From sequence record MZ065353.1: a stretch of 64,000 nt of DNA. One strand, written 5' to 3'. The position numbers and the translations under genes were made by a program. The stretch's first letter is position 1. Each line of letters begins with the position of its first letter. Below are positions 18,667-57,076 of the stretch, one piece after another. The stretch is from Escherichia virus KFS-EC3. Below the pieces are notes generated by a model. That model saw only the letters and a program-made list of their open reading frames with translations. It made no database searches and was not told the origin of the DNA.

Positions 18667-18691
18667 GGGGACCCTAGAGGTCCCCTTTTTT
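18667..18691 (+). terminator. intrinsic terminator after gene 32
   Basis: GGGGACC-loop-GGUCCCC followed by TTTTTT; compensatory stem changes relative to the hairpin at 1392. Confidence 0.75.
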
Positions 18692-18715
18692 ATTTCAAAA
18701 TTTTTTCACAAAACG

Positions 18716-18745
18716 GTTTACAAGCATAAAGCTTTATGGTACTAT
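18716..18745 (+). promoter_or_regulatory. early promoter (GTTTAC ... TACTAT), cassette paralogous to 1441-1470
   Basis: Near-identical flanking sequence to the motA promoter cassette. Confidence 0.55.
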
Positions 18746-18788
18746 ACAACTATCGGCAATACTGCTGATGATTAAAGAGGAAAATAAT

Positions 18789-19060: not shown

Positions 19061-19426
19061 ATGTATAATGGCAAAAAGTATGAGCTTGTTCCAAGACTTA
19101 TTGATACATTTATTAGTTATCGCCCACGTTCTAATTCATCAATAGTTAAAATTATTCAAGAAAATGGCGGATGGTTTGAAGTTAAAGAATCTTTCTTTGC
19201 TGACGGATTTAAAGTAATAAAACACATTGAATGCGCAAATGGAAAGCATTTTTACTTTAACGTCTGCGAAGATGAATTTCATTGTTTTCGTGAGTATAAA
19301 GAACCGACTTCCGAAGAAGATGAAGTCGAAGACAAGGTTTCTGGCGTAACAAAAATTCACTGCATTGTAGACGAAAATAACGTCGACGAAATCATTGAAC
19401 TTTTGCGAAAAACTTTCAAAAAGTAG
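19061..19426 (+). CDS. hypothetical protein (frd.2 position)
   Basis: 121-aa ORF with RBS. Confidence 0.6.
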   Translation: MYNGKKYELVPRLIDTFISYRPRSNSSIVKIIQENGGWFEVKESFFADGFKVIKHIECANGKHFYFNVCEDEFHCFREYKEPTSEEDEVEDKVSGVTKIHCIVDENNVDEIIELLRKTFKK

Positions 19427-25976: not shown

Positions 25977-27564
<1,588 letters not shown>

Positions 27565-27567
27565 GCT

Positions 27568-27620
27568 GTTTACAAGTCCCTCGTGTTGTGTTATAGTAAT
27601 CTTACTGATATAACATGAGG
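27568..27620 (+). promoter_or_regulatory. early promoter (GTTTAC ... TATAGT) within 53-bp repeat, copy 1, upstream of alc
   Basis: 52 of 53 nt identical to 43198-43250; embedded imperfect hairpin whose 3' arm contains the SD. Confidence 0.55.
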
Positions 27621-27625
27621 ACTTT

Positions 27626-28132
27626 ATGATGGATTTGCAGCTTATTACTACTGAGATGGTCGTTGAAGCATACGGTGATACTACAGATGGGATTTCTGTA
27701 TTTAAAGGAAATCGTCGAGTTGGATATATCACCGATCTTAAGAAAGATTTAGCTAAACAAGTCAAGCGGAAAACGACCATTAAAGAATATCGAAATCGTC
27801 GTCTTGAGCAAGCTCGTGATATGCTTCCTGATGCGGTTGAGGAGATGAAAGTCTTTTTAGAAAATCAGCTTGCGAAATATGATTGTGATGTGTTCATTAA
27901 TCAGACTCAACCTAATGTTCATATTAACAACTGTAAATGCTATATCATCGTTAATCCTTTAACTGGAAAACATCGTCTTGGAATTAGTAATCCAAATCGT
28001 AGCGCATCGGATATGGCAGAAGATGTTGAGGCATGCTTTAAAATTTCTAAATCTCCTGCTGAACATCATATTTTAATTAACGGTCTTTCTCAAGACGATA
28101 TTATAGAGGTTATTAAAACTTTATGCAATTAA
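27626..28132 (+). CDS. alc: Alc (blocks transcription of cytosine-containing DNA)
   Basis: 168 aa (T4 Alc about 167 aa) between rnlA and pseT; start may be second ATG at 27629. Confidence 0.8.
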   Translation: MMDLQLITTEMVVEAYGDTTDGISVFKGNRRVGYITDLKKDLAKQVKRKTTIKEYRNRRLEQARDMLPDAVEEMKVFLENQLAKYDCDVFINQTQPNVHINNCKCYIIVNPLTGKHRLGISNPNRSASDMAEDVEACFKISKSPAEHHILINGLSQDDIIEVIKTLCN

Positions 28133-30890: not shown

Positions 30891-30952
30891 TAGTTTACTT
30901 TACGGTAGAGTTGTGATATTATAGCTCTACCAAAATAAATGAGGAAATTGAA

Positions 30953-34150: not shown

Positions 34151-34327
34151 ATGGCAAAACAAGCTAAAGCAAAGAAAGCAGTTGAAAAGAAAGTTGGTGA
34201 TTCTAAACGCGCTGGTTACAAGCGTGGGTCGAACTCTCGTATCAATCAAACTGTTGAGAAGATCATGCGCCGAGCACGTGCGGTTCTTCGAGATGATGCT
34301 TCTCGTTTTGGTAAGCAGAAAGCATAA
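34151..34327 (+). CDS. small basic hypothetical protein (58 aa; 30.9 position)
   Basis: Lys/Arg-rich ORF from MAKQAK; track start 34109 is an extension. Confidence 0.5.
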   Translation: MAKQAKAKKAVEKKVGDSKRAGYKRGSNSRINQTVEKIMRRARAVLRDDASRFGKQKA

Positions 34328-34332
34328 GTTAA

Positions 34333-34356
34333 GGACTCCTTCGGGAGTCCTTTTTT
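34333..34356 (+). terminator. intrinsic terminator (GGACUCC-UUCG-GGAGUCC + T-run)
   Basis: Perfect 7-bp stem with UUCG tetraloop followed by TTTTTT. Confidence 0.75.
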
Positions 34357-34380
34357 ATTTTCCAAAGATTGCACAAAGTT

Positions 34381-34413
34381 GTTTACAGTATGGCTCCTTT
34401 GTGATAGTATTAT
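34381..34413 (+). promoter_or_regulatory. early promoter (GTTTAC ... TAGTAT/TATTAT)
   Basis: Third copy of the terminator-then-GTTTAC cassette architecture. Confidence 0.5.
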
Positions 34414-39012: not shown

Positions 39013-39020
39013 TATAAATA
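39013..39020 (+). promoter_or_regulatory. late promoter TATAAATA upstream of alt
   Basis: Exact TATAAATA 24 nt before the alt ATG. Confidence 0.7.
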
Positions 39021-39043
39021 GAATAAACACTAGAGAGGATATG

Positions 39044-41137
39044 ATGGAACTCATTACAGAATTATTTGACGAAGATACTACTCTTCCGATTACAAACTTA
39101 AATCCAAAGAAGAAAATACCACAAATTTTTTCAGTTCATGTTGATGACGCAATTGAACAACCAGGCTTTCGTTTATGTACCTATACATCTGGAGGTGATA
39201 CTAATCGCGATTTAAAAATGGGCGATAAAATGATGCATATTGTTCCTTTTACATTAACTGCTAAAGGTTCAATTGCTAAATTAAAAGGTCTCGGTCCAAG
39301 CCCAATTAATTACATCAATTCAGTTTTTACTGTTGCGATGCAGACGATGCGTCAGTATAAAATTGATGCCTGTATGCTTCGTATTCTTAAGTCTAAAACT
39401 GCTGGTCAAGCTCGACAAATTCAAGTTATTGCTGATAGACTTATCCGCAGTCGTTCAGGTGGCAGATACGTCCTTCTTAAGAAACTCTGGGATTACGATA
39501 AAAAGTATGCATATATTCTTATACATCGCAAAAATGTATCACTAGAAGACATTCCAGGAGTTCCGGAAATTAGCACCGAGCTCTTTACTAAAGTTGAATC
39601 GAAGGTCGGTGATGTTTATATCAATAAAGATACTGGAGCTCAAGTAACTAAAAATGAGGCAATTGCTGCATCTATTGCGCAAGAAAATGATAAACGTTCT
39701 GACCAAGCTGTAATCGTTAAAGTTAAAATTTCCCGTAGAGCAATTGCACAAAGTCAGTCATTAGAATCTTCTAGATTTGAAAGCGAATTATTCCAGAAGT
39801 ATGAATCTACCGCAGCTAATTTCAATAAACCTGCTACCGCTCCTTTAATTCCCGAAGCAGAAGAAATGAAACTTGGAATTAATTCATTAGCTTCTAAAAC
39901 TAAGGCAGCAAAAATTATTGCCGAAGGAACCACAGATGAACTTCATTATGACTATAAATTCTTTTCAAAAAGTGAGGTTAATGAAGTTTCTGAAAAAATT
40001 AAAGACGTAATTTTTAACGCGATCAAAAATGAACCGACTACTTCAATAAAATGTTTAGAGAAGTATGCAGCAGCTATTAATAAATTCTTTGAAGAATATA
40101 AAGATAATTGGCTTGATAAACATAATAAAACCCGTAAAGGACAGCCAGATGAAGTCTGGGAAGAAATGACTAAAAATTCCTGGAACGCAGCAAAAACTAA
40201 ATTCCTCAAAAGAATGATTTATAGTTTTTCTGGAATTGGTGCAGGTCCAATGATTGATATTACTATTGCCCGTGATGGTTCTAAATATACTCCATCACAA
40301 AAGCGCGGCATTAGAGAGTATTGCGGTTCAGGATATACTGACATCAATAATCTTCTTTTAGGACGCTACAATCCAGAACGATATGATGTAATGAGTGAAA
40401 AAGAAATTGAATCTGCTATAAATAACTTAGATTCAGCTTTTGAAAATGGTGACCGTATACCAGAAGGCATTACAGTTTATCGTGCTCAAAGTATGACTGC
40501 TCCTATATACGAAGCACTAGTTAAAAATAAAGTGTTCTATTTCAGAAATTTTGTATCTACTTCTTTAACTCCTATCATTTTTGGACGTTTTGGAATTACA
40601 CATGCTGGTATTGGTCTTTTAGAACCAGAAGCTCGTAATGAACTGACAGTTGATAAAAATGAAGAAGGAATAACTATTAATCCAAACGAAATAAGAGCGT
40701 ATAAAGAAAATCCTGAATACGTTAAAGTTCAAATAGGATGGGCAATTGATGGAGCTCATAAAGTTAATGTTGTATATCCAGGAAGTCTCGGAATAGCAAC
40801 AGAAGCTGAAGTTATTCTACCACGCGGATTGATGGTCAAAGTTAATAAAATAACTGATGCTTCTAATAATGACGGAACAACATCTAATAATACAAAACTC
40901 ATTCAAGCTGAAGTTATGACTACGGAAGAACTCACCGAATCAGTAATTTATGACGGTGATCGTCTAATGGAAACTGGTGAAGTAGTTGCAATGACAGGTG
41001 ATATTGAAATAGAAGACAGAGTTGACTTTGCATCATTTGTTTCATCAAATGTTAAACAAAAAGTAGAATCATCTCTTGGAATTATTGCGTCTTGCATAGA
41101 TATTACAAACATGCCTTACAAGTTCGTTCAAGGATAA
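39044..41137 (+). CDS. alt: Alt ADP-ribosyltransferase (packaged, injected)
   Basis: 697 aa; N-terminus MELITELFDEDTTLPITNLNPKKKIPQIF matches recalled T4 Alt; C-terminal R / STS / ExE motifs (YRAQ, FVSTSL, EAEVILPRG). Confidence 0.85.
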   Translation: MELITELFDEDTTLPITNLNPKKKIPQIFSVHVDDAIEQPGFRLCTYTSGGDTNRDLKMGDKMMHIVPFTLTAKGSIAKLKGLGPSPINYINSVFTVAMQTMRQYKIDACMLRILKSKTAGQARQIQVIADRLIRSRSGGRYVLLKKLWDYDKKYAYILIHRKNVSLEDIPGVPEISTELFTKVESKVGDVYINKDTGAQVTKNEAIAASIAQENDKRSDQAVIVKVKISRRAIAQSQSLESSRFESELFQKYESTAANFNKPATAPLIPEAEEMKLGINSLASKTKAAKIIAEGTTDELHYDYKFFSKSEVNEVSEKIKDVIFNAIKNEPTTSIKCLEKYAAAINKFFEEYKDNWLDKHNKTRKGQPDEVWEEMTKNSWNAAKTKFLKRMIYSFSGIGAGPMIDITIARDGSKYTPSQKRGIREYCGSGYTDINNLLLGRYNPERYDVMSEKEIESAINNLDSAFENGDRIPEGITVYRAQSMTAPIYEALVKNKVFYFRNFVSTSLTPIIFGRFGITHAGIGLLEPEARNELTVDKNEEGITINPNEIRAYKENPEYVKVQIGWAIDGAHKVNVVYPGSLGIATEAEVILPRGLMVKVNKITDASNNDGTTSNNTKLIQAEVMTTEELTESVIYDGDRLMETGEVVAMTGDIEIEDRVDFASFVSSNVKQKVESSLGIIASCIDITNMPYKFVQG

Positions 41138-41140
41138 ATC

Positions 41141-43198
41141 ATGGAACTTATTACAGAATTATTTGACGGCGCTTCGGCGCCGGTTGTTAACTTAAATCCT
41201 AAGCATAAAATACCTCAAATTTTTGCTATTCAAGCCGGTGAAGAAAGCGTGCTTCCTGGATTTAGATTTTGTACATACACCTCTGGCGGTGATACAAATA
41301 AAAACGTTAAGCCAGGCGATAAAATGATGCATATCGTAATGATAGGTGTCAATGAGAAACTATCATTAGTTAAACTTAAAAACTTGGGTGGAAATCCAAT
41401 TGGTGTCATTAATGCGGTTTTTGATACTGCTCTTCAAACAATGAAACAGTATAAAATTGATGCATGCCTATTCCGCGTACTAAAAAGTAAAACAAATGGC
41501 GCAGCTCGTCAAATGCAAGTTATTGCTGACCGTTTAGTACGTACTAAAGGAGCAGGTCGATATGTTCTTTTAAAGGAAATCTGGGATTATGATAAAAAGT
41601 ATGCATATATTATGGTTTACCGTAAAAATGCCAATTTAAAAGACATTCCAGGTGTACCTCCTATTTCAACTGAGTTATTCACAAAAGTTGAATCAAAGGT
41701 TGGTGATGTTTATGTAGATGTTAAAACAGGTAATGCTGTTCCTAAAGCTGTTGCTGTTGCTGCTTCTATTGCTTTAGAAAATGATAAGCGCACGGATCAA
41801 GCTGTTATTCAGAAAACTAAAATTAGTCGTCGATTGGCAGCACAAGCTCAATATTCTACTGTCGATGCTTCGCTTCAGGGTGATAGCTTCGCTGCCAAGA
41901 AATATCAAGAGTTTGAATCTAAAGTTCCGGTATATAAAGCAGAAGGACCAATGAACTCTGGTGTTATTCAGATTGGTTCAAACTTCGGCAAAGGAGCTAT
42001 CGGTGGTATGAGAAGTGCTTCTCGTTTTAAATCTAACGATTATGAACTAGAAAGCTTCCGAAATCATATTGCATTGGCCCATGCACGTTTACGTGATCCG
42101 TCTATCAGACTGCAGAGCGATATAACACATCAAGGTTCTCAAGAATATTTAAAGAATAAAGAATTTTTTGATTATAAAACCGATAAAATTTTGAGCGATC
42201 TCGCTGACATTAATATTTCTAATAGCTTTGATGTTATTAAGAAAATTATCAATGATTTAGTTAAAGGTTCTAAAGCCACACCAGACGAAAAGGTAGCTAT
42301 TATTCAATTTGTCATGAATGGCATTTATAAATTGATTAATGAATCTGCTGCTCAGGCATATGAATACGCAAGCACCGAAGTAACTCCAAAAGGACTGACT
42401 CAGGCTGAGTCTGATGTAATTGAAGATTATTGTGCAGATTCATATGTTGAAATGAACTCGTTCCTCTTGGGTAAACCAGATTCTACCCGTGAAGAATATA
42501 TGGAACGAGCTATTAAACACATCGAGACGCTGGATTCTGCCTTTGCCAAAGGTTCAGTTCTTCCTCCAGGAACTACGCTTTATCGTGGACAAGAAGTTAC
42601 TTTTAAAACTTTACGCCATAATATTGAAAATAAAATGTTCTATTTCAAGAACTTCGTATCAACATCGCTTAAACCAAATATCTTCGGTGAGCATGGTAAA
42701 AACTATATGGCTCTAGATGATTCCGGCGCAGTATTTTCTGGTGAAGGAGAAGGTTCTGTTGATGCTGAAGATTTAATGCATATGGGCAGTCATTCTGCTT
42801 ATGCGAATGAAGATGCTGAAACTAGCGTAGGTATGGTAATAAAAGGAGCTGAGCGAATTAAAGTTATCGTTCCAGGTCATTTATCGGGATTTCCATCAGA
42901 AGCTGAAGTTATTCTACCGCGTGGAATTTTGTTGAAGATTAATAAAGTAAGCACGTACATGATGAAAGAAACTGCTTATAACAAGTATCTAATCGAAGGC
43001 ACAATCGTTCCTCCTTCTGAACAATTAGAAGAATCGGTATATGATGGCGATCATCTAATGGAAACTGGTGAAGTTCGTCCAATGGCTGGGTTTAATCAAT
43101 TCCTTGTAGAAGAATCAAAAGAAGAGGAAAACGAAGTTTCTCAAATCTTGGCTTCTTTGGTTAACATCAACGGAATGTCTAAAAAGTTCAAGATGTAG
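41141..43198 (+). CDS. second Alt-like ADP-ribosyltransferase paralog
   Basis: 685 aa; conserved N-terminus and C-terminal ART motifs (YRGQ, FVSTSL, EAEVILPRG), divergent central region; starts 3 nt after alt stop. Confidence 0.8.
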   Translation: MELITELFDGASAPVVNLNPKHKIPQIFAIQAGEESVLPGFRFCTYTSGGDTNKNVKPGDKMMHIVMIGVNEKLSLVKLKNLGGNPIGVINAVFDTALQTMKQYKIDACLFRVLKSKTNGAARQMQVIADRLVRTKGAGRYVLLKEIWDYDKKYAYIMVYRKNANLKDIPGVPPISTELFTKVESKVGDVYVDVKTGNAVPKAVAVAASIALENDKRTDQAVIQKTKISRRLAAQAQYSTVDASLQGDSFAAKKYQEFESKVPVYKAEGPMNSGVIQIGSNFGKGAIGGMRSASRFKSNDYELESFRNHIALAHARLRDPSIRLQSDITHQGSQEYLKNKEFFDYKTDKILSDLADINISNSFDVIKKIINDLVKGSKATPDEKVAIIQFVMNGIYKLINESAAQAYEYASTEVTPKGLTQAESDVIEDYCADSYVEMNSFLLGKPDSTREEYMERAIKHIETLDSAFAKGSVLPPGTTLYRGQEVTFKTLRHNIENKMFYFKNFVSTSLKPNIFGEHGKNYMALDDSGAVFSGEGEGSVDAEDLMHMGSHSAYANEDAETSVGMVIKGAERIKVIVPGHLSGFPSEAEVILPRGILLKINKVSTYMMKETAYNKYLIEGTIVPPSEQLEESVYDGDHLMETGEVRPMAGFNQFLVEESKEEENEVSQILASLVNINGMSKKFKM

Positions 43199-43250
43199 TT
43201 TACAAGTCCCTCGTGTTGTGTTATAGTAATCTTACTGACATAACATGAGG
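43198..43250 (+). promoter_or_regulatory. early promoter within 53-bp repeat, copy 2
   Basis: Differs from copy 1 (27568-27620) at one position; GTTTAC begins at the last nt of the alt-paralog stop codon. Confidence 0.55.
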
Positions 43251-43258
43251 AACACAAA

Positions 43259-43549
43259 ATGAAATCTTCTTTACGCTTTTTAGGTCAAGAACTTGTAGTT
43301 GAAGGCGTTATTCCTGCTGATAACGCTTTTAATGAAGCAGTTTATGATGAATTTATCAAAATTTTTGGAACAGATAAAAAGTTCGGAATTTTTCCTTCTG
43401 AAAATTTTTCAAAGCCAGAACAGACTGAAAGCATTTTCCAAGGTGTAGTAACAGGTAAATTTGAGTCAGAAGCTCCGGTAAAAATTGAAGTTTATATTGA
43501 AGACAGTTTAGTTGCTTCAGTTGCTGCTTTCATTTCATTCCGTAAATAA
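43259..43549 (+). CDS. hypothetical protein
   Basis: 96-aa ORF with GAGGA RBS downstream of repeat copy 2. Confidence 0.55.
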   Translation: MKSSLRFLGQELVVEGVIPADNAFNEAVYDEFIKIFGTDKKFGIFPSENFSKPEQTESIFQGVVTGKFESEAPVKIEVYIEDSLVASVAAFISFRK

Positions 43550-43573
43550 AAATATGGGGACCTTTCGGTCCCC
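43545..43573 (-). terminator. hairpin terminator after gene 54 (GGGGACC-UUUC-GGUCCCC)
   Basis: Stem-loop followed by U-rich tract on the minus strand. Confidence 0.55.
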
Positions 43574-43577
43574 ATTG

Positions 43578-55657: not shown

Positions 55658-57076
55658 ATGGCTTTTACAGTTGATATAACTCCTAAAACACCTACTGGAG
55701 TTATAGATCAGACTCAGCAGTTTACTGCTACACCCAGTGGTCAAACTGGAGATGGACCTATTACATATGCTTGGACTGTAGATGATGTTCCACAAGATGG
55801 AGCTGAAGCAACTTTTAGTTATGTACTAAAAGGACCTGCCGGTCAAAAGACTATTAAAGTAGTTGCAACAAACACAGTTCCAGATACTGATGCTGAAACG
55901 GCAGAAGCTACTACAACTATCACAGTTCAAAATAAGACACAGACAACTACCTTAGCTGTAACTCCTAATAGTCCTCCAGAAGGAGTAATCGGAACAGCTG
56001 TTGAATTTACTGCTGCCTTAGCTTCACAGCCATCGGGCGCATCTGCTACGTATCAATGGTACGTAGACGGTTCTCCTGTGGGCGAAGCAACTTCTGCTAC
56101 ATTCAATTACACTCCTTCCACAAGCGGAGTTAAAACAATTAAGTGTGTAGCTCAAGTAACCGCGACAGATTATGATGCAAAGGAAGTTACTTCTAATGAA
56201 GTGTCACTGACTGTTAATAAAAAGACGCAGACAACTACCTTGACAGTAACTCCTGATAGTCCTCCAGCAGGAGTTATTGGAACCCCAGTTCAATTTACTG
56301 CTACCTTGGCTTCTCAACCTGATGGAGCGTCTGCCACGTATCAGTGGTATGTAGATGATTCACAAGTTGGTGGAGAAACTAACTCTACATTTAACTATAC
56401 TCCAACTACAAGTGGAGTAAAAAGAATTAAATGCGTAGCTCAAGTAACAGCGACAGATTACGATACAAAAGAAGTTACTTCTAATGAAGTGTCATTGACA
56501 GTTAATAAGAAAACAATGAATCCACAGGTTACATTGACTCCTCCTTCTATTAATGTTCAGCAAGATGCTTCGGCTACATTTACTGCTAACGTTACGGATG
56601 CTCCGGAAGAAGCGCAAATTACTTATTCATGGAAGAAAGATTCTTCTCCTGTAGAAGGGTCAACTAATGTATACACTGTTGATACATCATCTATTGGAAG
56701 TCAAACTATTGAAGTTACTGCAACTATTACTGCAACTGATTACGATAGCAAAACTATTACAGCAGAAGGTCAAGTTCAGGTAACTGATAAAGTTGCTCCA
56801 GAACCAGAAGGTGAACTACCTTATGTTCATCCTCTTCCACATCGTACTTCAGCTTACATCTGGTGCGGATGGTGGGTTATGGATGAAATCCAAAAAATGA
56901 CTGAAGAAGGTAAAGATTGGAAAACTGAAGATCCAGATAGTAAATACTACCTGCATCGTTACACTCTTCAGAAGATGATGAAAGACTATCCAGAAGTTGA
57001 TGTTCAAGAATCGCGTAATGGATACATCATTCATAAAACTGCTTTAGAAACTGGTATTATCTATACCTATCCATAA
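55658..57076 (+). CDS. hoc: Hoc outer capsid decoration protein with four Ig-like domains
   Basis: 472 aa; repeated about 96-aa Ig-like modules plus C-terminal capsid-binding region. Confidence 0.9.
   Translation: MAFTVDITPKTPTGVIDQTQQFTATPSGQTGDGPITYAWTVDDVPQDGAEATFSYVLKGPAGQKTIKVVATNTVPDTDAETAEATTTITVQNKTQTTTLAVTPNSPPEGVIGTAVEFTAALASQPSGASATYQWYVDGSPVGEATSATFNYTPSTSGVKTIKCVAQVTATDYDAKEVTSNEVSLTVNKKTQTTTLTVTPDSPPAGVIGTPVQFTATLASQPDGASATYQWYVDDSQVGGETNSTFNYTPTTSGVKRIKCVAQVTATDYDTKEVTSNEVSLTVNKKTMNPQVTLTPPSINVQQDASATFTANVTDAPEEAQITYSWKKDSSPVEGSTNVYTVDTSSIGSQTIEVTATITATDYDSKTITAEGQVQVTDKVAPEPEGELPYVHPLPHRTSAYIWCGWWVMDEIQKMTEEGKDWKTEDPDSKYYLHRYTLQKMMKDYPEVDVQESRNGYIIHKTALETGIIYTYP
55934..56509 (+). 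repeat. tandem duplication of a 288-bp Ig-like domain unit within hoc
   Basis: Two consecutive 96-aa units differ at about 16 of 96 residues by eye. Confidence 0.85.

Follow-up and report, generated by a model that had tools for sequence, protein, structure and literature searches.

Two near-identical early-promoter units upstream of alc and alt.-3 in a T4-like phage, and a predicted hairpin that may mask their ribosome-binding sites on read-through RNA

Why should two intergenic stretches of a phage genome, separated by more than 15 kb of coding DNA, be the same at nearly every base? The question arises from a 64,000-nt stretch of Escherichia virus KFS-EC3 (MZ065353.1), which is referred to as the window throughout and which belongs to a Tequatrovirus 98–99% identical to phages such as pSs-1 and HY01. 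The first-pass annotation of this DNA had described a 53-bp direct repeat with one mismatch, its copies about 15.6 kb apart, one upstream of alc and the other downstream of the second alt-like gene, and had suggested that such identity is unexpected unless it is maintained by selection or gene conversion. The gene map agrees with this placement (Table 1), and the distance from copy 1 to copy 2 was measured as 15,630 bp. A pattern search allowing up to three mismatches returned exactly two matches, both on the + strand, with none expected by chance according to 100 shuffles, and the same pair was recovered by an independent repeat finder as family D7. Upon realignment the identity stays high, and the single mismatch is as described (T at 27609 in copy 1, C at 43239 in copy 2), but the unit is 54 nt long rather than 53, giving 53/54 identity, which breaks off sharply at both borders. 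Ten GTTTAC promoters lie on the + strand of the window, and the other 44 pairs among them agree at 24.7 of 54 positions on average and at no more than 39; thus the early-promoter consensus does not explain 53/54. Based on the shuffles and on this comparison of promoter pairs, chance and promoter consensus were both rejected as the cause of the identity.

Copy 1 lies 3 nt after the stop codon of rnlA, in a conserved neighbourhood, while the first base of copy 2 is overlapped by the stop codon of alt.-2 (TAG, 43196–43198). The alc reading frame has a second ATG at 27629, which has the better spacing from the Shine-Dalgarno (SD) sequence and is the start annotated in T4. Downstream of alt.-3, a terminator is followed by gene 54 on the opposite strand. 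The window also carries tandem full-length alt paralogs (39041–41137 and 41141–43198), whereas T4 has just short remnants of the second, known as alt.-1 and alt.-2.

Table 1. Coordinates of the two repeat copies, their elements and the neighbouring features in the window.
Feature	Position	Strand	Remark
rnlA (gene 63)	26440–27564	+	stop codon 27562–27564; transcripts predicted to read into copy 1
Copy 1 of the 54-nt cassette (promoter, leader, SD)	27568–27621	+	upstream of alc
Copy 1, −35 TTTACA	27569–27574	+	
Copy 1, hairpin 5' arm (repeat positions 12–31)	27579–27598	+	anti-SD CCUC, rest of the spacer, −10
Copy 1, −10 TATAGT	27592–27597	+	preceded by TG
Copy 1, hairpin 3' arm (repeat positions 36–53)	27603–27620	+	leader, ending in GAGG of the SD
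Copy 1, SD GAGGA	27617–27621	+	
alc	27626–28132	+	inhibitor of host transcription
Late-promoter motif TATAAATA	39013–39020	+	21 nt upstream of alt
alt.-2	41141–43198	+	full-length Alt-like ADP-ribosyltransferase, 685 aa
Copy 2 of the 54-nt cassette	43198–43251	+	upstream of alt.-3
Copy 2, −35 TTTACA	43199–43204	+	
Copy 2, hairpin 5' arm	43209–43228	+	
Copy 2, −10 TATAGT	43222–43227	+	preceded by TG
Copy 2, hairpin 3' arm	43233–43250	+	includes GAGG of the SD
alt.-3	43259–43549	+	96 aa, phrog_1739
Bidirectional terminator-like hairpin after alt.-3	43554–43575		first such + strand site downstream of the alt late promoter

Each copy had been proposed to carry an early promoter and to end in a GAGGA SD, and both elements were recovered. 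The two copies score as sigma-70 promoters (TTTACA-17-TATAGT, matching 10 of 12 consensus positions, with a TG-extended −10), and GAGGA stands at the end of each, 4–7 nt 5' of the start codon. In the place of an A/T-rich UP element, upstream of the −35 and outside the repeat, the sequence is the A/T-rich 3' end of rnlA at copy 1 and is less A/T-rich at copy 2. Copy 2 is annotated as a predicted early promoter in one GenBank record. Transcription is predicted to start around repeat position 37, some 7 nt beyond the −10; no genome-wide map of T4 start sites was found in our literature search. In a T4 time course, alc and alt.-3 are early at both the RNA and the protein level, while rnlA has early RNA and late protein, alt.-1 and alt.-2 have middle RNA, and alt is late (PMC9697503). 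The temporal class in T4 switches exactly at both cassettes, as expected if both promoters are active early.

Several other features were observed in or around these promoter regions. An ATG within the SD block (ATGAGGA) opens a mini-ORF of 4–5 codons at both copies (27615–27629 and 43245–43262), the TGA of which overlaps the start of the gene (ATGA); the same layout occurs in phage VR5, in L030, L048 and L040 of our comparative set and at 30893 of the window, and the arrangement may be due to chance. Ahead of rnlA (26388–26416), a MotA-box-like TGCTTC located 12 nt upstream of TACTAT resembles a middle promoter; the published table of identified T4 middle promoters has no entry for an rnlA promoter (PMC2988021).

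Read as sense RNA, the unit folds back on itself. Repeat positions 12–25 pair with 40–53 and positions 28–31 with 36–39, making 18 bp in total, with A26 and T27, which are part of the −10, left as an unpaired bulge. In this fold the CCUC at the start of the 5' arm, which belongs to the promoter spacer, pairs with the GAGG of the SD. The predicted free energy of the 54-mer is −20.1 kcal/mol (z −5.5; none of 200 shuffled sequences folds as well), and the folds reach −25.5 and −26.0 kcal/mol in their sequence context. The sense RNA is also far more stable than the antisense RNA (−22.5 vs. −11.4 kcal/mol), with 3–4 G.U pairs in the sense stem. The earlier suggestion that the identity requires selection or gene conversion holds as stated, but it missed the cause, namely that the whole unit is one RNA hairpin. 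No description of this hairpin was found in the literature that we searched; most of the older T4 literature lies outside that search, and an earlier description is possible. Rfam covariance models gave no match at either copy at E values up to 1. Elsewhere in the window, a weak match to Atu_C8 at 34283–34366 (32.5 bits, gathering score 50) covers a terminator-like hairpin before the promoter at 34381 and is most likely spurious.

The consequences of the predicted fold differ between two kinds of transcript. RNA that begins at the predicted start lacks the 5' arm, which at copy 1 lies upstream of that start, and is unstructured (−4 kcal/mol, z +0.8), while RNA that reads through from upstream contains both arms. 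The cost of opening the region from the SD to the AUG is 9.8 and 11.6 kcal/mol on read-through RNA, vs. 2.2 and 1.9 kcal/mol on RNA from the cassettes' own promoters, and this gap of 8–10 kcal/mol is the largest among the ten early promoters in the window. Read-through into both copies is plausible: on the + strand, the scan for terminators called none from rnlA to copy 1 or from alt to copy 2, and a late-promoter motif upstream of alt is the likely source of late transcripts that pass through alt and alt.-2 into copy 2.

Two other roles for the stem were considered and set aside. It is not an intrinsic terminator, as it is followed by no U run but by CUUUAUGAUGG in copy 1 or AACACAAAAUG in copy 2, and the terminator scan calls neither. 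Translational coupling, in which ribosomes halting at the upstream stop codon would open the hairpin, is unlikely on geometry alone: the anti-SD begins about 15 and about 11 nt downstream of the two stop codons, beyond the roughly +11 to +13 nt that a terminating ribosome unwinds.

Taken together, we consider it reasonably probable that each copy is a self-contained early expression cassette with a hairpin that masks the SD on read-through RNA, and that copy 2 is derived from an alc-type cassette. In the proposed mechanism, sigma-70 RNA polymerase would start at TTTACA-17-TGtTATAGT and produce a short, unstructured leader with a free GAGGA, from which alc (copy 1) and alt.-3 (copy 2) would be translated straight after infection. 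Polymerases arriving from upstream, that is, from rnlA and the operon preceding it for copy 1 and from the alt late promoter for copy 2, would transcribe the whole cassette, and their RNA would then contain both arms and, provided that it folds in vivo as the energies predict, form a hairpin of 18–22 bp with the CCUC of the spacer on the GAGG of the SD. With the SD so buried, we infer that the downstream gene would not be translated from read-through messages, and synthesis of Alc and Alt.-3 would be tied to the early promoter alone. Nearly every base of such a unit would serve as promoter element, pairing partner or SD, and drift would be tolerated only at loop, bulge and wobble-tolerant positions, so that the near-identity of the copies probably reflects mainly these stacked constraints.

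The variation seen within Tequatrovirus can be compared with this expectation. Essentially all of about 499 related records have the two places (995 places in 499 records); public scans with gp30.7 comprised 14 and 9 loci only. T4 itself carries the two copies, near coordinates 136,284–136,337 and 123,040–123,093 of its genome, and they differ at one position; the copies are identical at 54 of 54 positions within several genomes (ECP2301, Sf25, and FL33/34). The T at 27609 is private to the window, as 0 of 495 records carry T at copy 1. Variants in the genus, read from copies located by tblastn anchoring, are found in the loop or bulge (positions 27, 32, and 33) or keep pairing (positions 15, 16, 40, and 42), and only two break a pair, at positions 12 and 29, the change at 29 giving TATAAT. 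One variant of copy 2 (11T, 15T, 16A) forms a perfect helix that extends into the flank specific to copy 2. The share of stem changes that keep pairing, 4 of 6, is near the expectation from transitions alone, and there were no double compensatory changes within Tequatrovirus, where shuffles equal the observed covariation value and the test has no power.

Two observations from these searches stand on their own. A 32-kb record named Staphylococcus phage SAJK-IND (MG010123.1) matches copy 2 and its flanks at 94 of 94 positions and is probably a mislabelled or mixed record, with T4-like DNA under a Staphylococcus label. The window also contains a 288-nt tandem duplication with 80% identity at 55922–56497.

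Our comparative set comprised the regions upstream of alc from 29 IMG/VR T4-like contigs and those upstream of alt.-3 from 15. In most genera, the region upstream of alc has the same layout, consisting of GTTTACA, a spacer complementary to the leader and SD, and a −10 in the loop; the carriers include Dhakaviruses of the JS98/QL01/VR5 type, STML-198-like and phiP4-3-like phages, and several contigs of 162–178 kb. The sequences of the arms vary between genera yet stay complementary, for example TCTCCGTTTAG with CCAAACGGAGA, ATCCTCATTTTGTTG with CAACAAAATGAGGAT, and CCCTCTCGTTTTT with AAAAACGAGAGG. Since a plain MAFFT alignment across genera left the 3' arms out of register, alignment-free arm swapping and a covariance model were used instead. 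Cognate arms form duplexes with a mean of −19.1 kcal/mol, vs. −10.6 kcal/mol when arms are swapped between lineages; the cognate arm is the best partner in 12 of 14 rows, and none of 200,000 permutations reaches the observed cognate pairing sum. A covariance model built from Tequatrovirus copies only (n = 12) detects the alc cassettes of other genera with E values from 7.6e-4 to 0.2. In the resulting alignment, which is biased towards structure, 92.6% of cells pair and both sides have changed in 14 of 18 pairs, compared with 36–60% paired in slid controls and at most 85% in whole-arm swaps. In 26 alc contigs, opening the SD–AUG region costs a median of 8.25 kcal/mol more on read-through RNA than on own-promoter RNA, and the difference is 6 kcal/mol or more in 22 of them; the SD is left unburied in four alc lineages (L034, L049, L040, and L037). 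Judged by these comparisons of sequence, several T4-like genera have kept the hairpin design ahead of alc, with compensatory changes. The situation at alt.-3 is different, as the extra opening cost there is 8.9–12.4 kcal/mol in Tequatrovirus vs. 1.0–3.2 kcal/mol in other genera, which have a different promoter at this place, so that the SD-burying design at alt.-3 is restricted to Tequatrovirus.

Stems in the other genera are nearly all Watson-Crick, and hence give no clue as to whether the structure forms in RNA or in DNA, or on which strand. It could be supposed that the selected structure is an inverted repeat in the DNA, which would be extruded as a cruciform or hairpin and present the −10 as a single strand or tune the strength of the promoter. 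The equal stability of those stems on both strands would suit such a structure, as would the position of the −10, which is in or beside a loop or bulge in all lineages. The Tequatrovirus stem fits it poorly, however: it contains 3–4 G.U pairs, and when the repeat is folded as DNA its two strands reach just −5.7 and −3.4 kcal/mol (z −2.1 and −0.75). Moreover, the pairing extends exactly to the SD, which would be meaningless in DNA. We regard a structure acting at the DNA level as extremely improbable.

A different function in RNA deserves more weight. A hairpin that spans the −10 is found in 6 of the 10 GTTTAC promoters of the window. The + strand early promoters at 19426, 30893, 34381, and 34811 lie inside such hairpins, with z from −3.0 to −4.7; among these four, only the one at 34381 buries its SD (CTCCTTTGTG against CACAAACAAAGGAG). 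Because the hairpins at 19426, 30893, and 34811 stop short of the SD, promoter-spanning hairpins may have a more general role than SD masking, for example in processing or stability. Accordingly, the cassette hairpin on read-through RNA might be a processing or stability element, either an RNase III-type site that separates cistrons or a protector of the 3' end of the rnlA or alt.-2 message after endonucleolytic cleavage. In favour of such an element, the hairpin is predicted for RNA that reads through and not for the cassettes' own transcripts, and it stands right at the border between two cistrons. An element of this kind would not need the SD, in agreement with the three promoter hairpins and the four alc lineages in which the SD is free. 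Nevertheless, 22 of the 26 alc contigs cover the SD or strongly raise its opening cost, which would be needless for a stabiliser, and several genera have stems of just 13–16 bp with loops of 14–20 nt. An E. coli RNase III substrate needs about two helical turns, and these stems are short for that enzyme. We therefore consider a processing or stability element to be fairly unlikely as the main explanation.

Masking of the SD would explain why the sequence is constrained, and the history of the two copies is a further matter. The blocks GTTTACA and CATGAGGA are common to all alc and alt.-3 promoters compared. Since the design is ancestral at alc and present at alt.-3 only in Tequatrovirus, copy 2 has a transplanted look and, on this distribution, is best interpreted as a cassette of the alc type that was set into the promoter of alt.-3. 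This would have happened in an ancestor of Tequatrovirus, and the borders of the patch would probably have been the two consensus blocks. As to later exchange, position 32 is polymorphic for A and G at both loci in a correlated manner (AA in 6 genomes, GG in 5, GA in 4, and AG in 0). Occasional conversion would account for this correlation, but so would repeated mutation at a position that is among the few free to vary. It is plausible that the copies underwent ectopic conversion from time to time after the original copying. In the Dhakavirus VR5 (L038 on the alc side and L059 on the alt.-3 side), the alc cassette has a 3' half that matches the alt.-3 leader of the same phage perfectly over 32 nt including ATGAA, which is not so in its sisters JS98 and QL01; the VR5 alt.-3 leader also matches Klebsiella phages. 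Taken at face value, the VR5 patch suggests that these two loci have exchanged sequence independently in a second genus.

It might be argued that duplication and gene conversion are sufficient by themselves, i.e., that these are two strong early promoters kept alike by exchange, and that the hairpin is incidental. About 50 bp of homology suffices for recombination in T4 according to Singer (1982), as cited in PMC2839356, and both the correlated polymorphism at position 32 and the 32-nt patch common to the two VR5 loci are consistent with exchange. However, an incidental hairpin would hardly fold so far better than shuffles, nor would it be kept upstream of alc despite quite different sequence, with both sides changed in most pairs. 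Duplication and conversion also do not predict variants that spare pairing, or the extension of the copy 2 helix into its local flank. Based on these considerations, exchange as the sole cause is quite unlikely.

A role in exchange has also been proposed for the repeat. The first-pass annotation had proposed that the pair provides a substrate for recombination that would delete or duplicate the intervening alc-to-alt block, and a related idea is that it is a mobile regulatory cassette like the PeSLs, the main role of which is to shuffle, delete or duplicate the DNA in between through homologous exchange. In T4-type phages, recombination takes place at PeSLs, which are repeats that contain a promoter, and PST and T4 are one such pair of phages (PMC2839356; PMC4122927). 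PeSLs typically adjoin indels or replacements in hyperplastic regions. The transplanted look of copy 2 would agree with a mobile cassette, as would the variability of the adjoining alt.-2 region, in which alt.-2 is full length in the window and truncated in T4. Yet the predicted deletion or duplication junction between the copies was in none of about 499 related phage records, and the interval holds genes 30 and 31, which argues against the proposed deletion or duplication of the block. Both genes are essential in T4, and a duplication of 15.6 kb would exceed the capacity of a T4 headful. In addition, the truncation of alt.-2 in T4 ends about 20 nt upstream of copy 2, outside the cassette, and neither copy is preceded by the terminator stem-loop by which PeSLs are defined. 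We conclude that a main role in recombination is very unlikely.

A unit with the published PeSL layout does occur elsewhere in the window. It is an 88-nt sequence found at 1392–1479 and 18667–18754, 17.3 kb apart and 78% identical, with a partial third copy at 34349–34387, and in it a G/C-rich terminator hairpin comes first, followed by a T run, an A/T-rich stretch and, last, the GTTTAC early promoter.

The best-supported account is that the repeat is an early-gene variant of the T4 device in which a promoter sits inside a hairpin that masks the ribosome-binding site (RBS), conserved at alc and copied to alt.-3, although the direction and mechanism of copying are, like the start site, what we infer. 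If the hairpin works as proposed, synthesis of Alc, a host-transcription terminator, and of Alt.-3 would be tied to the firing of the early promoter, whatever later transcription crosses their genes. It would also explain in concrete terms why two intergenic stretches so far apart are nearly identical in hundreds of genomes, and provide a compact, portable insulator design with promoter, anti-SD and SD in 54 nt. More tentatively, there may be a general promoter-in-hairpin device in the Tevenvirinae, by which translation of early genes such as alc would be confined to their own immediate-early transcripts, with none from the abundant read-through, middle and late RNAs, and which was portable enough to be copied from alc to alt.-3 in the ancestor of Tequatrovirus; we see this wider generalization as possible but doubtful. 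T4 serves as the reference for the timing of phage gene expression, and how it shuts off early protein synthesis so rapidly has been accounted for only in part (PMC2988021; PMC3014915); a general device, if true, would add an unrecognised post-transcriptional layer to that shut-off. Because both copies are present in T4 itself, the idea is directly testable with standard mutants.

How does the cassette compare with known systems? It resembles other T4 early promoters (Pe; reviewed by Hinton 2010, PMC2988021) in its GTTTAC-type −35, 17-bp spacer, TGn-extended −10 and early downstream gene. However, the consensus alone accounts for about 25 of 54 shared bases, compared with 53–54 between cassette copies, and in the cassette base pairing gives the spacer and leader a further layer of information. 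Like a PeSL (promoter-early stem-loop; Arbiol 2010, PMC2839356; Comeau 2014, PMC4122927), the cassette is a short repeated unit with an early sigma-70-type promoter and with an SD and start codon at its end; it is copied from one intergenic place to another and could plausibly be a target of homologous exchange. By contrast, a PeSL has as its stem-loop a G/C-rich terminator on the 5' side of the −35, preceded by an AT-rich tract, whereas nothing upstream of the −35 is repeated in the cassette, the stem-loop of which encloses the −10 and ends in the SD.

The closest parallel is found in the hairpins of T4-type phages that sequester the RBS and contain an internal promoter, which are known for e, soc, 49, 25/26, I-TevI, I-TevII, I-TevIII, segB, and mobE of Aeh1 (PMC2988022). 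The principle was established with these cases, all of which are late genes as stated in the same review (PMC2988022). In both systems, a stable hairpin buries the SD on RNA started upstream, and the RNA from the internal promoter lacks the 5' arm and is translatable, with the fold and the start being predictions in the case of the cassette. The difference lies in timing. In the known cases, a late (or middle) internal promoter is carried on early or middle polycistronic RNA, whereas the internal promoter of the cassette is a sigma-70 early promoter and the messages to be masked would be the later, read-through ones. The time logic would thus be reversed, and the cassette, if it functions in this way, would mirror the strategy known from late genes.
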